64,000 bases of DNA from Escherichia phage Gostya9. Below, one piece after another: positions 3,894 through 55,459 of the stretch. Each line of letters opens with the position of its first letter. The stretch's first letter is position 1. Both the position numbers and the translations under genes were made by a program. The notes beneath the pieces were generated by a model. It was not told the DNA's origin and did not search any database. It was given only the letters and a program-made list of their open reading frames with translations. The stretch is from sequence record NC_047979.1. One strand, given 5' to 3'.

Positions 3894-4145
3894 TTATGCT
3901 ACAGCTTCCCATTTTTCGTTACGCTGGGCAACCTTTACAACGTCGCCAGATTTAACGCGAACGCTAAAAACGGTTTTTCCGTTGTTGCTACGTTCCGTTT
4001 CTGCATATACTGCATCAATTACATCAAAAGGCATAAGCGCCGCGCCTTTGATGCGTTCGGCTTTTCCGGTTGCCTCGTCCGTTTTAGTAACGAAAGGGAT
4101 GAAAACGGATTGACCAATTTTTGGCGCGGTGATAGCGTTTTTCAT
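3894..4145 (-). CDS. hypothetical protein
   Basis: 83-aa ORF with GGAG RBS context upstream. Confidence 0.45.
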   Translation of the reverse strand: MKNAITAPKIGQSVFIPFVTKTDEATGKAERIKGAALMPFDVIDAVYAETERSNNGKTVFSVRVKSGDVVKVAQRNEKWEAVA

Positions 4146-5200
4146 GGTATAAACTCCAGTTATTTGATGGATTGTTCCGCATTACCTGCTAGAAAAGGGA
4201 TAACAGGTAATGGGTAACGATCCGTTCGCCGTTAAAATCAATTTAAGGAACTCCACACAGGCCGCTATATCCCGTTAGGGGGCGGGACACCTTATGGCAA
4301 GTGCCGGCCGTCAAATTGTACCAAGTTATTGCTCTTGTTGAATCGGGTACATCTTAAAGCCCATCGGCTAGGGTGTCAAATTATTTTTCGTTTTCTTTTA
4401 AATTAGAATTCTCCCAACTGAATTGCATCTCGCAAAATATTTTCCCATCTTTATGATGGTAAGATATTTCGCTCCCGTGGTTAGCACAAAAAGCGATCAC
4501 TGCCTCAGCTTGTTCCACCGTGATATTGTTAGCCGTTTCTTTGATTTTCATATCGTCGATTCCTTATAAGGTTAATAAGTTTGCCGCCGATAGGCTTTAA
4601 GGTGTACCTGATTTTTAAAGAGCGCGCGGCGGTAAACTCCCCGCCGTGTAGTCCGTTGCCGTCCTACGAGATAAATAATAGGGAATACCCAAAAATGGTG
4701 CAACCTTAATTTTGTAAAGAAATGTAAAGAAAGCAAATACTCGCACCGCGTCCGGTGATCGCCCAAGTTTAAAGGAAACGAGCGCGTGGATACCATAAAA
4801 CCGAGCTGATTGGCAAGTAATTTTTTCATTTTTATTTGCCTTGCCCTACTTGACAAATTCTAAAAAGCTCGTGGTGACGATAAACGGGCTGCCCCTTTAT
4901 GATGGGATACCTGAAAAAATTATCGCGTTAGAAAGCGTTTTTGGCCGCTTATTTTCGATTTAACAAATATTTAACAAAAGCAAAAATGAAAAATAGTTTG
5001 AAAAGGCATTGACTTTTAAAAATCAAGACTAAATGAGTTATTTTATAAAATTAATTAATTGACTTTTATTTGTTGTTGTGTAGTAGAAAGATAGCAGACT
5101 AATAATTACTAGAATGATAATCATGCTGGTGGGTTGTAACAGCCTGAACTATTAGCAGACTACTGATCCCGGAAAATATCATTAGCCAACTAACTATTCC

Positions 5201-5340
5201 ATAAGTTATAATAATTATAGAAATAATAACTATAGAAATAATAACTATAGAAATAATAACTATAGAAATAATAACTATAGAAATAATAACTATAGAAATA
5301 ATAACTATAGAAATAATAACTATAGAAATAATCACCGTTA
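5201..5340. repeat. 15-bp tandem repeat (TATAGAAATAATAAC), about 8-9 copies
   Basis: period-15 repetition read directly; produces the artefactual pentapeptide-repeat ORFs 5099..5350 and 5190..5414. Confidence 0.9.
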
Positions 5341-5394
5341 TAATAATCACTATAAGAAACTAATCGGCCTAAGTGAGAACCACTATCATTTAAG

Positions 5395-5486
5395 TTATCC
5401 ACAATGTTATCCACAGCACAAAATGATTTGACACGATAGGCGGCGATATAAGGACTTATCCACAGACTTATCCACAGGTTATCCTA
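5395..5486 (+). promoter_or_regulatory. cluster of four perfect DnaA boxes (TTATCCACA) plus one imperfect
   Basis: TTATCCACA at about 5395, 5407, 5456 and 5468, all same orientation; matches E. coli DnaA box consensus. Confidence 0.7.
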
Positions 5487-5504
5487 CTGTATATTTATAC
5501 AGGG
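5485..5504. promoter_or_regulatory. LexA (SOS) box-like palindrome
   Basis: TACTGTATATTTATACAGGG versus consensus TACTGTATATATATACAGTA; CTGT-N8-ACAG core intact. Confidence 0.6.
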
Positions 5505-5871
5505 TAAAAAGATAGTGTTTACAACTGCAATCAATTTTACGCGGCCTAAATCGCTTTCTAACGGGCTGATCGCTGTAGGGTAATATTAAAGTAAAGCCTC
5601 CAGCCGTTGCCCTGGAGGCTTCGCCGTGGTTTGCTCTTTACTGCACCGCTGCGCGGTTAGCATAAAACTAGGTGTTAGGCAAGAAAATAAAAAGTAAAGT
5701 AAACGTTGCCCCTAGAAAGAAAATAATTTTACCGGTAACATCGAAAGCGGGTAATAATTAACCTAGTGTAAAGTTTTGTAAGGCCAGCCATAATCGGCGG
5801 CCTTTATTGTTATAATGCCCTTACACCGTTTAAGGACGGTTAAAAATTTCCCACTAACTAGGAGAAGAAAA

Positions 5872-6051
5872 ATGGTTATTTTTCGATCTGTTCTGGCCGG
5901 TATCTTGGGCGCTATTCTGACTCTTTTTGCTACCGCTTACGGTATCCAGGATTCTTATTGTGGTTTAGTAAATACTAAACCGATGGTTATTATTGGCGCG
6001 GGTATCGCTGTTTTTTCTTATCTGCTGGGCTGCATGAATAAAGGGGAATAA
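5872..6051 (+). CDS. small membrane protein
   Basis: ATG preceded by AGGAGAAG RBS; 59 aa, two hydrophobic segments; first gene of a 4-gene plus-strand mini-operon. Confidence 0.45.
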   Translation: MVIFRSVLAGILGAILTLFATAYGIQDSYCGLVNTKPMVIIGAGIAVFSYLLGCMNKGE

Positions 6052-6052
6052 A

Positions 6053-6265
6053 ATGATCCGTAACGTTTCCCTTGCTCGTTCCAAAGGTTTTAAGCTGGTG
6101 GATGTAAACACGTTCGAGCGTCCTGATTGTAAAATCGAATATGTAGCGCGGAATAAAAACGCCTTTCGCGTTACAGAAAAGAGATTCGATAAGCGCGGCA
6201 ACATGATAATTGAAACGGTTAAATATTTTGCCACCTTTTACGCGGCCTTTCGTGGGGTACTATGA
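6053..6265 (+). CDS. hypothetical protein
   Basis: 70-aa ORF; start overlaps upstream stop (TAAAATG). Confidence 0.4.
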   Translation: MIRNVSLARSKGFKLVDVNTFERPDCKIEYVARNKNAFRVTEKRFDKRGNMIIETVKYFATFYAAFRGVL

Positions 6266-6369
6266 AGAGCGTTGTTATTGTTATCCTTGCAATGGTTGGC
6301 GGTTTTACTGCCACCTTATTAAAAAATGATCCTCTTTTATTGGGGGTTTTTATGCTTTTATCTGGTTAT
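6262..6369 (+). CDS. small hydrophobic protein (35 aa)
   Basis: ATG overlapping upstream stop; hydrophobic sequence; below the ORF-track size cutoff. Confidence 0.3.
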
Positions 6370-6388
6370 CTGATCGGGAGGTTATAAA

Positions 6389-6733
6389 ATGGTGATTTAT
6401 GAAGGTGATCGCTTTATTGCTGATTGCCGTCCGGCATTGTTAGCAAACTATTTAAATCAGCTTTCGCCAGTATATAAAGGCGTCCTAAATATTTATGAAG
6501 GTGAGGCGCATTATAAGGTCAATGCGGTCGTCGCCCGTGAACTAGCGTTTCAATTTTTGACCTTTGCATCTTGCGGTATTCAGGTCATGGGTGAAGCGTT
6601 AATAGCAGAAAATGAAGATGATTTTATTAATATCTTCCGCAAAATATGCACCGAGCGCCTGATAATGAAAGGGGCGTATATTCAATCAACTGCGGATAGT
6701 ATTGAAACGGCTTTTAGAAAGGGGGCACAATGA
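6389..6733 (+). CDS. hypothetical protein
   Basis: 114-aa ORF preceded by GGGAGG RBS. Confidence 0.45.
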   Translation: MVIYEGDRFIADCRPALLANYLNQLSPVYKGVLNIYEGEAHYKVNAVVARELAFQFLTFASCGIQVMGEALIAENEDDFINIFRKICTERLIMKGAYIQSTADSIETAFRKGAQ

Positions 6734-6859
6734 AGCTATATATTTTCGCGGGTAATGTTGAGGCTGCAAATGATTCCGCTGGTGGCGATAACGTTCGCCA
6801 TTATTGGCAAAATTATATTTACTAGGCGTAATAATCACGGGGCACAACTATCAGGGAGT

Positions 6860-6892
6860 GCCCCTGATTCTCAAATGAGAATGATTCTCATT
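6860..6892. repeat. palindrome AAATGAGAATGATTCTCATTT
   Basis: perfect inverted repeat; related palindromes recur at 7355-7380, 7553-7575 and 7588-7615. Confidence 0.7.
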
Positions 6893-7095
6893 TGACCGCG
6901 CCCGCTATGGTTAGCCTGCTAATGATTAGGGTGTTACGTGTCACCTTGCGTGATCGTTAGCCTGCAAATGATTAGCCTGCAAATGATTTGACCGCGCCCG
7001 CGATGGTTAGCCTGCAAATGATTAGCCTGCAAATGATTAGCCTGCAAATGATTAGGGTGTTATTTGTCGCCTTGTGTGATGGTTAGCGGGCTAAC
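6889..7095. repeat. two copies of a ~75-100-bp direct repeat containing 15-bp subrepeats (GATTAGCCTGCAAAT)
   Basis: TTTGACCGCGCCCGC..GGTTAGCCTGC..AGGGTGTTA unit seen twice with 2-3 tandem 15-mers inside. Confidence 0.8.
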
Positions 7096-7213
7096 TAATT
7101 TTCAAGCCTTCTTCAATTTTGCCCTTGTTTTAGTATCCCCACCAAAATAAAACGCGTTAGAAAGCGATTCAGGGCGTTTTAGGCCTATATTAGAATTATT
7201 CACTGCGTAGGAA

Positions 7214-7233
7214 TACTGTATAAATATACAGTA
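7214..7233. promoter_or_regulatory. LexA (SOS) box-like palindrome
   Basis: TACTGTATAAATATACAGTA, one mismatch to the LexA consensus; exact reverse complement of the 19-bp segment at 5484-5502. Confidence 0.65.
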
Positions 7234-7242
7234 GAATAACCT

Positions 7243-7323
7243 GGGGATAAGTCGGTGGATAACGCTTCAAAATGGCTAGAATTTTGTCAAGGCAAATCGT
7301 GCTGTTGATAAGTCTGTGGATAA
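7243..7323 (-). promoter_or_regulatory. DnaA-box cluster, opposite orientation to the 5395 cluster
   Basis: TGTGGATAA perfect at about 7315; GGTGGATAA and weaker GGGGATAAG / TTGATAAG nearby. Confidence 0.55.
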
Positions 7324-7340
7324 CTTAAATAACAGTGTTT

Positions 7341-7620
7341 CTCACTTCCGTTTTTAAATGCGAATCATTATCATTTGCACTCCACTTCTTGAATAGTTCT
7401 CATTCCACTTCTTGAATAGTTCTCATTCCACTTCTTGAATAGTTCTCATTCCACTTCTTGAATAGTTCTCATTCCACTTCTTGAATAGTTATCATTCCAC
7501 TTTTTAAATGATAATCATTCCACTTCTTAAATGATAATCATTTCACTTTTTAAATGAGAATGATTATCATTCGCATTCCACTTCTTAAATGCGAATCATT
7601 CTCATTCGCATTTAGGCGAG
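7341..7620. repeat. 23-bp tandem repeat array (CCACTTCTTGAATAGTTCTCATT, about 9 units with variants) containing palindromic sub-sites
   Basis: five near-identical units followed by diverged units; embedded palindromes AAATGCGAAT..ATTCGCATTT. Confidence 0.85.
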
Positions 7621-7636
7621 CAGGGCAATTGCCCTG
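7621..7636. repeat. perfect 16-bp palindrome CAGGGCAATTGCCCTG
   Basis: read directly. Confidence 0.7.
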
Positions 7637-7643
7637 CGCTTAT

Positions 7644-8443
7644 GTGCAAATCCGACAATTGCTCCAAGGGTTACGCGTGGGCATGTATGTGCAAATCCGA
7701 CCCATTTTTTGGTAGTGTGCAAATCCGACCCTAAAAATTTATAAATTCGTGAGAGTGACGAATCTGTCTCCCAAAAACTCCAGCAATCACGAACTGCGTT
7801 CGAATCCTGTGGGGTATGTGCAAATCCGACACGGTTTTTCTAGGATTAAGATGTGCGAATCCGATGAAATTTTTGTGACTTCGATGAGAGGGTGTGTGAT
7901 TGTATAGGTTTGAGGAGAAGGTGAGAGAGCGGGAGAAATTTTGGGACTAGAAGGATGTGGGCGCAGGATTGGTGCGGAGCACCTGATTTGCGGGGGTTTT
8001 GGGGGATAGTTGAGGTAATTTGGGGAAATTTGAGATAGGTGCAGAAAAAGTAAAATTTTATTAGCTAAATGGGGCAAAATAGCTTGACGAGTGAAAATTC
8101 TTGTGGCTCTAAAAACTCAGGCAATCACGGGCCTTCGGCCCGAAATAATGCTGCCATTTTCAGGAGATTATATGTTCCTAAAAACTTAGGCGTTTGTGCA
8201 AATCCGACCATAAGTTTCTAGAAACACAATGTACAAAACCGACAGTAATTTCTGGGAATGTGTTTTCAAAAAATGTCTTCTAGAAATAACCGCCCTCCCT
8301 ATAACCGCCCTATATTAACCGCCTATGCTAGAGTTTCTAGGAACAATGAAAACTGCCCTAGAATTTGTGCAAATCCGATGAATATTTCTGTGTGATCTCT
8401 AGAATTTATACTTATCAATTTCCTAGAATATGTGCAAATCCGA
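7644..8443 (+). repeat. dispersed direct repeat family TGTGCAAATCCGA(C/T), at least 8 copies, same orientation
   Basis: copies near 7644, 7688, 7716, 7817, 7853 (variant), 8194, 8365 and 8430; frequently followed by a T-run; one extra copy inside CDS at about 10107. Confidence 0.8.
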
Positions 8444-8495
8444 TGAATATTTTTGTGTGATCTCTAGAATTTATGCTTATCAATTTCCTAGAAAC
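8358..8495. repeat. ~70-bp tandem duplication
   Basis: TGTGCAAATCCGATGAATATTT..TCTCTAGAATTTAT..CAATTTCCTAGAA present twice in tandem with 3 substitutions. Confidence 0.8.
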
Positions 8496-8891
8496 TTAGG
8501 AGTCTGCTAGAAAGTGTTGAGCCATCCTAGCAGATGAGCGGCAACCGGTGTATCATCTTGAACACAGATATTGCCTTTAAATTTTTTATCAGTTATTTTT
8601 AAATATAAGATCCCCCAAGGTTCTCATATAGAGCTTTGCCCCCGCCAGAAGGTCTCGTGATGTTTCTAGTAATCTTTATTAAATTACCTATTGACTTGTC
8701 CTGTCGCTCCGTAACCTACGCTACAAGTCAGTAATTTAAGATTCCTGAACCACCACACCTTCTGTGTGGCAACTCTAAATGGTTAATTCTATTAACTCAT
8801 AGAGTTATGATAACATACATTTAGCTATCTGTCAACGAGAGTTTGTATTATTGTCTCGGTACAGGTATTGTGCACCGAGACTTGCAGAGTA

Positions 8892-9776
8892 TTATAATAA
8901 TTCTTGGTATGCTTTTTGATACGCCTCAGTATCTGTAGGTGTACCTTTTGCTAACGCAATTAGTTCATCCGTTATCTGAATATTCGTATTATAACGTGTG
9001 TGGAACTCGTCAGGGATTTCTAGATATCTATTTATGAACGCTGCAGCAAGCGGTGAAGCTACACCCATTTCTAGAACCCATCCAACATGGTTTTCAAACT
9101 TCAGATAAGGGGAATCAGATGGGGTTGGTGGGGTTACATCAATTTTCTCTGGTTCTTTTTCTGGAAGCAATGGATTACTATATAATGCTTCATCTGGAAG
9201 CACAGATTTACGCTCTTTAAATATATAAGTTTCTAGATCAGATGCCTTAGATCCTGAGTACACAGCAAAAACGCTAGCTTTACCTTGTGATGCCCTAACT
9301 GGTAGATAACTAGTAGGATAGCTTCTTAATGCATCATGGAATGGACTTCCTGAATATTTGTACGTATCTCCATAGAGATCATCAATATTCATTCGTTCAT
9401 CTTCAAAAATGTGAAATGACTTAAATGGTGGAATGGTGAAGTACTCCATCTGTAATCCATAAACTAAGAAACGATGTGCATATGCACTGATTTTTAAGAC
9501 TGTGAATGCTTTTTCACCTTCTTTATGGGCATTGCCCTTTGAAGTAACTGGGTAACGTTTACAAAACATCTCTACTAGACGTTTCTCATTAATATTGAGT
9601 GAGGAATATAAACGTCCATTTAGCCCTATAAGTGCATCGAACATAAATGCTAGTTTATCTTTTTCTTCTTGGGTTAGTCCAGGAAACGGAAGTACTTTAG
9701 CATTAGGAACACTATTATTCTCTTTAGGTTTTGTTTTACCAGCATTTTGTCTTAGTTTATCTTTAAAGTTATACAT
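8892..9776 (-). CDS. hypothetical protein
   Basis: 294-aa ORF; GGGAG RBS upstream; no motif recognised. Confidence 0.55.
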   Translation of the reverse strand: MYNFKDKLRQNAGKTKPKENNSVPNAKVLPFPGLTQEEKDKLAFMFDALIGLNGRLYSSLNINEKRLVEMFCKRYPVTSKGNAHKEGEKAFTVLKISAYAHRFLVYGLQMEYFTIPPFKSFHIFEDERMNIDDLYGDTYKYSGSPFHDALRSYPTSYLPVRASQGKASVFAVYSGSKASDLETYIFKERKSVLPDEALYSNPLLPEKEPEKIDVTPPTPSDSPYLKFENHVGWVLEMGVASPLAAAFINRYLEIPDEFHTRYNTNIQITDELIALAKGTPTDTEAYQKAYQELL

Positions 9777-9853: not shown

Positions 9854-10450
9854 TTAACTACCTCTCTTATCTTCATTAATAACAGCTCCTAGTGCCCCCA
9901 TAATTGCATCTTCTATACTTCCATGCTTACTAGGATTGCTTAAGTGAATAGTATATGAGTTCCTAGAAACTCCAGAGTCCACAGGCGCTACGCTTTTCAT
10001 ATCAGACTCAAAAGCTTCTTGAGTATGTTTCAATTGTGCAGAAGGTCCATAATCTTCCCCAAACTTATATGACTGTGTACTACTTACCGCACCCCCACAT
10101 GGAACATTGTGCAAATCCGATGGATTATTTAACAGTGCAATGCCACTTCTCGGCCACAGGTCACTAACATGGGTACTAGGACGGTTAACCTCAGTCTTCA
10201 CAAGTTTATAACCAGCATCGATCAGTGCATTAATAAGGTTATCAGCTGGAATGCGAGCCTTGCCGAAAATCTCACGAGCGTTGTTGAGCCTACCTTCAAA
10301 ACCTTTACATGCTCTAATATTAGTGTGTGCAAAGGTTAGCTTCATAGATTTGAATTGTACAGTAGCAGTTAAATCTTTAAAGCTATAATCCCACGTATTC
10401 AGTTCATGATCTGGTACTACTTGAATAGATTGTTGTGCATATAAAGTCAT
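9854..10450 (-). CDS. hypothetical protein
   Basis: 198-aa ORF; contains an internal copy of the TGTGCAAATCCGA motif. Confidence 0.55.
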   Translation of the reverse strand: MTLYAQQSIQVVPDHELNTWDYSFKDLTATVQFKSMKLTFAHTNIRACKGFEGRLNNAREIFGKARIPADNLINALIDAGYKLVKTEVNRPSTHVSDLWPRSGIALLNNPSDLHNVPCGGAVSSTQSYKFGEDYGPSAQLKHTQEAFESDMKSVAPVDSGVSRNSYTIHLSNPSKHGSIEDAIMGALGAVINEDKRGS

Positions 10451-32480: not shown

Positions 32481-32556
32481 AGTGTTACTACATAAGTGAT
32501 TTCCACACCCCACTATTTATAACTTAGAGAAGAATTACTCTCTAATTTATGAATAT

Positions 32557-32585
32557 ATTATACAGAATTTATAAGCATTTAGCAA
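32557..32585 (-). promoter_or_regulatory. sigma70-type promoter upstream of isolated tRNA
   Basis: TTGCTA-17-TATAAT on minus strand. Confidence 0.6.
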
Positions 32586-50705: not shown

Positions 50706-50734
50706 TTGCATGATGCCCAAAATCTTGATATAAT
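50706..50734 (+). promoter_or_regulatory. sigma70 promoter
   Basis: TTGCAT-17-TATAAT; followed by about 600 nt without a convincing ORF. Confidence 0.65.
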
Positions 50735-54348: not shown

Positions 54349-54377
54349 TGCATAGTTCAAAAAATTTCTGTATAATA
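54349..54377 (+). promoter_or_regulatory. sigma70 promoter
   Basis: TTGCAT-17-TATAAT with AT-rich upstream element and conserved leader. Confidence 0.7.
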
Positions 54378-54407
54378 GATTCATAAATTTGAGAGAGGAG
54401 TTTAAAT

Positions 54408-55373: not shown

Positions 55374-55402
55374 TTGCTTAATCCTACAATTCTTGATATA
55401 AT
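55374..55402 (+). promoter_or_regulatory. sigma70 promoter
   Basis: TTGCTT-17-TATAAT. Confidence 0.65.
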
Positions 55403-55459
55403 ATTCTCATAGTTTGAAAGAACTATTCTGTTTAATTCTTAATTAAGGAAATATAAAAT

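Follow-up and report, generated by a model that had tools for sequence, protein, structure and literature searches.

Near the left end of a T5-like (Tequintavirus-like) phage genome, a 15-bp sequence is repeated head-to-tail almost without divergence. The locus raises the question of what such an array represents: a recent expansion, a constrained functional element, a coding sequence or an error of assembly. An earlier note on this DNA had put forward the first two as alternatives. We analysed the window, i.e. the whole stretch of 64,000 nucleotides, together with the orthologous locus of related phages.

Structure and copy number of the array

Analysis with TRF placed the array at 5208-5332, with a period of 15, 8.3 copies, 99% matches and a score of 243. 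As assembled, the unit TATAGAAATAATAAC is present in seven exact copies (5216-5320), followed by an eighth copy with one mismatch at 5321-5335. Read in another register, the same run forms a homogenised core of seven identical 15-bp units GAAATAATAACTATA, extending from 5220 to 5324. Degenerate units border this core on both sides. The left edge unit GTTATAATAATTATA (5205-5219) matches the unit at 12 of 15 positions and overlaps a conserved TATAAT hexamer (5207-5212). The right edge (5325-5355) consists of GAAATAATCACCGTT at 5325-5339, which overlaps the eighth copy as counted in the TATAGAAATAATAAC register, and the 16-bp ATAATAATCACTATAA at 5340-5355; both resemble the C-type units that dominate the array of phage DT57C. 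When the degenerate edges are included, about ten units are recognisable, spanning 5205-5355. The earlier note had described a perfect repeat of eight to nine copies. The repeat itself is borne out by TRF, the count being slightly generous, with seven perfect, one near-perfect and about ten recognisable units. With up to two mismatches allowed, the unit is matched seven times in the 64 kb versus 0.5 matches expected, and none of 100 shuffles reached seven; no copy was found outside the array in the 64-kb window at this threshold.

Genomic setting of the array

All 532 matching records of the phage collection (532/532) were T5-like, and none was an identical isolate. The closest relatives, DT57C and DT571/2, show 92.7% identity over 4000-9000, which is the first-step-transfer region, and 97% in the core region and its genes. 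A plasmid origin or plasmid iterons were rejected, the plasmid collection giving no megablast match and the window being T5-like phage DNA. About 44 bp of the genome precede the window, which places the array in the left terminal repeat and hence in first-step-transfer DNA. It occupies a divergent non-coding region, with the leftward pre-early genes (dmp, A1, A2, a T5.007 homologue and others) on its left and rightward small genes, starting from 5815, on its right. The first-step-transfer DNA of T5 contains Repeat Regions 1-3 with the elements IRA, IRB, IRC, IRD, DRD and DRE, which were described by Heusterspreute, Wang and Davison (bioRxiv 10.1101/866236). In these terms the array is placed in Repeat Regions 1 and 2, which form a single fused region in phages that lack the HNH insert. 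The array was not described in the literature searched; it is missing from the repeats named by Davison because the reference phage T5 does not carry it.

Copy number variation at the orthologous locus

To delimit the locus we relied on a left anchor, TTAGCCAACTAACTAT, and a right anchor, CACTATCATTTAAGTTATCCACA, neither of which differs between T5, DT57C and the window. The conserved left anchor, (A)TCATTAGCCAACTAACTAT at 5179-5197, is present in every Type 1 relative including T5. Orthologous segments were taken from IMG/VR loci and GenBank phages, yielding 29 distinct alleles; a scan of IMG/VR with the left anchor added a few true loci, and 12 unrelated chance matches were discarded. Among the 29 alleles the distance from anchor to anchor was 45, 76-77, 93, 107-109, 139, 170, 184-187, 216, 227 or 264 bp, the window having 187 bp, DT57C 216 bp, Kenya-K44 227 bp and Kenya-K20 264 bp. 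The lengths change in steps of about 15-16 bp, and the alleles contain between 0 and about 14 units of the family RAAATAATMACYATA. Individual units measure 15 or 16 bp, with compound units of 21, 27 or 31 bp now and then. The copy-number comparison across isolates that the earlier note had proposed therefore reveals free variation.

In nearly all array-bearing phages the array ends with GAAATAATAACTATAA followed by GAAACTATCGG, and this terminal unit is the variant that is amplified in the window. Other lineages have been homogenised independently: ESCO40 carries six perfect copies of AAAATAATAACTATA (the A-variant) and Kenya-K44 has A-variant runs of four and two, while the window has a run of seven of the G-variant. 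Two exact units of the window in tandem gave no match in IMG/VR and none in the JGI metagenome contigs.

Comparison with DT57C allows the perfect run to be dated. Over 330 aligned bases the left flanks differ by 18 substitutions, and over 459 the right flanks differ by 21 (about 5%), whereas the 105-bp core of the array contains no substitution at all. At the same site DT57C has a degenerate array (81% matches between copies) which is structurally different, alternating between CACCATT and CACTATA units, and which cannot be aligned unit for unit with that of the window. The edge units are common to both phages. Because the flanks have diverged by about 5% while the core is free of substitutions and the arrays are not alignable, the run of seven perfect copies must postdate the split from DT57C. 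Of the two options of the earlier note, recent expansion is hence the one that fits the data. The left and the right terminal repeat of one genome carry identical alleles, as do DT57C and DT571/2. Since both terminal repeats and near-identical isolates thus share one allele, the rate of gain and loss is not extreme. In DT57C a 20-bp tandem duplication of the left anchor, ATCTCATTAGCCAACTAACT (5176-5222, 2.3 copies), adjoins the array and may be read as a further sign of a slippage-prone spot.

The Klebsiella T5-like phage Roth50 (Type 3) has kept the left DnaA module (10040-10300). Neither the TTAGCCAACTAACTAT anchor nor a minisatellite was found beside the module in this region. Judged from this single Type 3 example, the minisatellite appears to be confined to the Tequintavirus/Epseptimavirus clade.

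Alleles without repeat units adjoin an HNH gene

T5 has no unit at the homologous site. In all seven zero-unit alleles (T5 and six others) the locus adjoins an HNH homing-endonuclease gene (hegG-like) at the same insertion position, the HNH proteins of the array-less loci being 55-100% identical to one another. In three further HNH loci the deletion is larger, and the left anchor has been lost as well. The relatives without an adjacent HNH insert all keep at least one unit, which may point to constraint on a single unit or on the sequence around it. It seems that the homing element either brought the loss of the minisatellite with it or spread that loss; on this view the array-less allele with its insertion shows how a mobile gene can reshape a region of non-coding repeats. 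The HNH-adjacent array-less loci are T5 (L003, 5411-6012) and L004, L005, L008, L013, L018, L021, L037, L046, L050 and L055. In some array-bearing phages an HNH gene is located farther upstream.

A T5 mutant lacking the genes from hegG to 017 is viable, its plaques are smaller and many genes are missing from it (bioRxiv 10.64898/2026.04.02.716235). The junction primers of this mutant map to T5 positions 5393 and 9161 and, from their complementary overhangs, we infer a single contiguous deletion. The interval 5393-9161 takes in both the T5 counterpart of the array locus (6050-6107) and the left DnaA-box module. The tandem organisation is dispensable, as T5, the six other alleles without units and the viable T5 deletion demonstrate. 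Functional constraint, the other option of the earlier note, is thus not borne out for the tandem organisation, viable isolates having anything from 0 to about 14 units.

Open reading frames across the array

Two open reading frames with GTG start codons cross the array on the minus strand, one of 83 aa encoding (VIISI)n (5099-5350) and one of 74 aa encoding (YYFYS)n (5190-5414). The former corresponds to DT57C gp008, which is annotated as 'repeat completion protein', a product name that was not found in the literature searched. Stop codons are absent from four of the unit's six frames, and consequently long arrays yield open reading frames on both strands automatically. In the window, DT57C, phA11 and Kenya-K20 the VII-type frame continues downstream into a conserved minus-strand tail (...IVSWLM...HQHDYHPSNY*). 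In ESCO40, Kenya-K44 and HZ_ZJUN2 the same tail is joined to the YYFYS frame, and in short-array phages it is shortened or missing. Units of 16 and 31 bp disrupt the reading frame, and the 20-bp duplication in DT57C alters the C-terminus of the array ORF. Searches of PHROGs and Pfam gave no match for the array ORFs.

The public annotations of the locus differ. No CDS is annotated in ESCO40 and HZ_ZJUN2, and Oldekolle has a repeat_region feature. A CDS is placed on the minus strand in DT57C, phA11 and Kenya-K20 and on the plus strand in Kenya-K44; the calls over the minisatellite are YP_009149789.1 (DT57C), WGG14187.1 (phA11), WCZ57569.1 and WCZ57616.1 (Kenya-K20) and WCZ58198.1 (Kenya-K44). 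All of them cover the same orthologous array and, by comparison of their frames, are probably spurious. As far as can be judged from the sequences, the array ORFs are gene-caller artefacts and not a protein family, in agreement with the earlier note, which had called the two pentapeptide-repeat ORFs artefactual; the frames are not conserved and the array is non-coding. The spurious genes in public T5-like genomes (DT57C gp008, WGG14187.1, K20_008, K20_009 and K44_008) should not be propagated.

A putative promoter-like element to the left of the array

Directly upstream of the array, and reading rightward into it, lies a putative promoter-like element, TAGCCA-N18-TATAAT (5183-5212, plus strand), which is conserved in all relatives and in most of them is followed by (C/T)ATAAATTAATGAG. 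In the window the motif TATAAT-N5-CATAAATT occurs at 19 sites versus 2.4 expected, with a strand that tracks gene orientation, and the 19 sites align to AAAAATTTAnTTGCTT...TATAAT...CATAAATTGATGAGAGG. They lie within 14078-57776, for example at 54371-54389 (plus), 55397-55415 (plus) and 32544-32562 (minus). We take this motif to be the classical T5 early-promoter family, with a P_N25-like site at 54371 and a P_D/E20-like site at 55397. In the left 12 kb of T5, the only TATAAT-N5-CATAAATT site is found exactly at the array locus.

A weight matrix was built from the motif sites of the window; in leave-one-out scoring the true sites reached a median of about 53. Compared with this value, the array-adjacent element is weak, scoring 0-8 bits in relatives, and in the window it falls to -20 to -26. 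The full early-promoter match (AAAAATTT-TTGCTT as -35/UP, TATAAT and CATAAATTGATGAGAGG) is not found beside the array. In relatives only the -10 and downstream half fit the family, the -35/UP half being unlike it, and in the window and in DT57C the downstream half has been overwritten by the array. With this half-site match, a bona fide T5 early promoter directly left of the array was rejected, and the element is at best a weak or relict promoter, as judged from its sequence. If it is active, the array would form an AU-rich leader. The weight matrix flagged further candidates elsewhere, e.g. at 50729 (plus) and 45387 (minus).

The DnaA-box module and the physical properties of the array

To the right of the array there are four perfect DnaA boxes TTATCCACA, at 5395, 5407, 5456 and 5468, and the window as a whole contains five versus 0.72 expected. 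The first box lies 60 bp past the last near-perfect unit, and the array is indeed just upstream of the DnaA-box cluster, as the earlier note had stated. The boxes are arranged in two pairs within the IRC-spacer-IRD module (5371-5502), which forms one arm of a 132-nt inverted repeat. The partner arm, IRD'-spacer-IRC' (7216-7347), is 78% complementary to 5371-5502 and belongs to the injection-stop region. Four of the perfect boxes of this inverted repeat are on the left arm and one is on the right. In T5 the pair IRC-spacer-IRD / IRD'-spacer-IRC', with its DnaA boxes paired 3 bp apart, has been proposed by Davison as a putative component of the injection stop signal (bioRxiv 10.1101/866236).

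Over lengths of 100-150 bp, no duplex in the 64 kb is less stable than the array (nearest-neighbour mean of about -0.94 kcal/mol per step, z about 5, 88% A+T). Intrinsic curvature was rejected, the predicted value of 3.6 degrees per turn (wedge model) ranking at the 20th percentile of the window. A helically phased protein-binding array was likewise rejected. With twist parameters after Bolshoy/Kabsch one unit corresponds to 1.41 turns (15 bp) or 1.51 turns (16 bp), and because a unit spans about 1.41-1.5 turns, successive units face opposite sides of the helix. The same verdict applies to a structured RNA or a stable slipped hairpin, for which the ensemble frequency of the MFE structure was at most 1.4% and the centroid nearly unpaired, on both strands and for RNA or DNA. 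The fold z-scores of -2 to -3.5 stem from a palindrome, CTATAG, formed where two units meet; arrays of the A-variant do not have it. Rfam returned nothing relevant, with one sub-threshold chance match elsewhere in the region. The array contains neither GATC nor the 13-mer consensus GATCTnTTnTTTT. The sole evident physical effect of the array is that the AT-rich, easily melted spacer beside the DnaA boxes grows from about 45 to about 190 bp.

Origin of the array and competing explanations

The likely reading of these observations, taken together, is a near-neutral non-coding minisatellite which changes by slippage or unequal recombination and which has recently undergone a burst of one variant to seven copies. 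Both the mutational mechanism and the near-neutrality are deduced from the comparison of alleles. One ancestral unit, GAAATAATAACTATA(A), would have been located between the conserved promoter-like element and the left DnaA-box module. This unit would then have been amplified, diversified and re-homogenised in different lineages, with slippage during replication, unequal recombination between units, or both, as the mechanism. In the phage studied here, a single variant would lately have been amplified to seven identical copies, the edge units being old and degenerate. Since a lineage-specific homogenised interior is combined with degenerate edges, the array follows the pattern of concerted evolution. 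The account given in the earlier note is essentially right.

Near-neutrality has to be weighed against three observations: one unit or more is retained by every relative that lacks the adjacent HNH insert, the least stable duplex of the window adjoins four perfect DnaA boxes and a conserved TATAAT, an arrangement like that of functional origins and promoters, and the T5 deletion mutant has smaller plaques, though many other genes are gone from it. The array could thus be a functional cis element, either an AT-rich unwinding element or spacer for the DnaA module, or a variable initial transcribed region that tunes pre-early expression or the handling of first-step DNA. Such a role would agree with the extreme instability of these 100-150 bp (z about 5, 88% A+T), with the boxes 60 bp away, with the conserved TAGCCA-N18-TATAAT directly upstream, whose -10 and downstream half fit the early-promoter family in relatives and mark the sole site of this motif in the left 12 kb of T5, and with the retention of at least one unit in all phages without an adjacent HNH insert. 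We nevertheless regard it as unlikely. The copy number ranges from 0 to about 14 and has no conserved value; units are absent from T5, in which two-step injection was defined, and T5 survives deletion of the entire locus; in Roth50 the DnaA module occurs with no array beside it. The promoter-like site scores far below the early promoters in relatives and even lower in the window, with a -35/UP half unlike the family, and neither GATC nor the 13-mer is present. Moreover, the replication origins of T5 were mapped near the genome centre, as cited by Davison (bioRxiv 10.1101/866236). A more specific proposal, which strikes us as quite improbable, is that the copy number itself serves as a tunable control, the length of easily melted DNA beside the DnaA module and the weak promoter setting the unwinding, transcription or tethering of first-step DNA. 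If this proposal were true, T5-like phages would gain a fast-evolving control over pre-early timing.

That an assembly artefact accounts for the perfect homogeneity or for the exact copy number is very unlikely. In favour of an artefact, short reads cannot span a perfect repeat of 125-150 bp, the array is about as long as common short reads, the copies of the 23-bp array at 7381-7532, too, resemble one another more closely than those of DT57C do, and no second isolate with this allele was found in IMG/VR or the JGI metagenomes. However, similar homogenised runs exist at the same locus in independent genomes (ESCO40, Kenya-K44), co-linearity with relatives extends through the degenerate edge units and both flanks, and an assembly error could alter the count but not create the array. 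Hardly credible is the reading behind the annotations in DT57C (gp008), phA11 and Kenya-K20, namely that the minus strand encodes a real small hydrophobic membrane protein with pentapeptide repeats. It is true that the period of 15 bp preserves the frame, that the VII-type frame is open in these phages and in the window, and that several public records contain a CDS here. Four of six frames would be open anyway, however, and which of the frames leads into the conserved tail differs from phage to phage. The frame is lost wherever a unit measures 16 or 31 bp, and the duplication in DT57C changes the C-terminus. Annotators disagree on the strand and on the presence of a gene, PHROGs and Pfam gave no match, the ORF in the window has only a GTG start and no obvious Shine-Dalgarno sequence, and T5 lacks this ORF.

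Comparison with known repeat systems

The inverted terminal repeats of monkeypox virus carry 16-nt tandem repeats (PMC10101126). Like such viral terminal-repeat VNTRs, the array consists of short AT-rich head-to-tail units in the non-coding part of a terminal repeat, with a copy number that varies between lineages and is stable in near-identical isolates, and with a homogenised interior and degenerate edges. Unlike the monkeypox repeats, it belongs to another virus family with another replication mode and lies beside a DnaA-box module and a promoter-like element. With the Repeat Regions of T5 (bioRxiv 10.1101/866236) the array shares the same untranslated region, directly left of IRC-spacer-IRD, and the same patchwork of direct and inverted repeats. 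In contrast to Davison's named repeats, which were described as conserved in order and content, it is hypervariable, absent from the reference T5 and without significant similarity to DRD or other arrays.

The DNA-unwinding element of oriC likewise comprises AT-rich direct repeats with the least stable duplex, adjoining clustered consensus DnaA boxes. The array differs from it in lacking GATCTnTTnTTTT and GATC, in its copy number of 0 to about 14 and in its absence from T5 and Roth50, and origin activity at the array is not expected. As in the iterons of plasmid and phage origins, tandem direct repeats are found near DnaA boxes and AT-rich DNA. Iterons, however, are phased on one face of the helix (spacing of about 11 or 22 bp), whereas the unit of 15-16 bp spans about 1.41-1.5 turns; furthermore, no Rep or initiator gene is annotated among the neighbours (dmp, A1, A2 and small ORFs), and the copy number is not conserved.

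The finding is an ordinary one whose value lies mainly in annotation and typing, and it opens no long-standing question. The locus can serve as a length marker that separates Tequintavirus and Epseptimavirus lineages, and short-read assemblies may miscount there. It would be of wider interest only if the copy number modulated the DnaA-box module, whose role in two-step injection is hypothetical.

Other repeats in the region

The surroundings of the array contain several further repeats. A 42-nt inverted repeat, 76% complementary (4919-4960 and 5529-5570), encloses the promoter-like element, the minisatellite and the DnaA module and is possibly one of Davison's pairs (IRA/IRA' or IRB/IRB'). A strong GC-rich hairpin of 11 pairs at 5593-5622 is terminator-like on the minus strand, where no gene is annotated upstream of it.

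The non-coding part of the terminal repeat at 6890-7055 contains an array of TTAGCCTGCAAATGA with a 15-bp period and 6.3 copies. On the outer side of the other inverted-repeat arm, the 23-bp tandem array TCCACTTCTTGAATAGTTCTCAT (about seven copies, 7381-7612) represents the DRD repeats of the injection-stop region. The minisatellite was considered as a relative of the former (6957-7055) and as the mirror counterpart of the latter. Both candidates were rejected, local alignment of the array against the DRD side and 6880-7100 on both strands giving scores similar to those of shuffles (z < 1.5). With 94% matches here versus 82% in DT57C, the homogeneity of the 23-bp array suggests that either several loci of this lineage were homogenised recently or the assembler smoothed the repeats. 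Farther to the right, seven copies of TGTGCAAATCCGA are dispersed over 7640-8453, and a 65-bp unit is repeated 2.1 times at 8357-8493.
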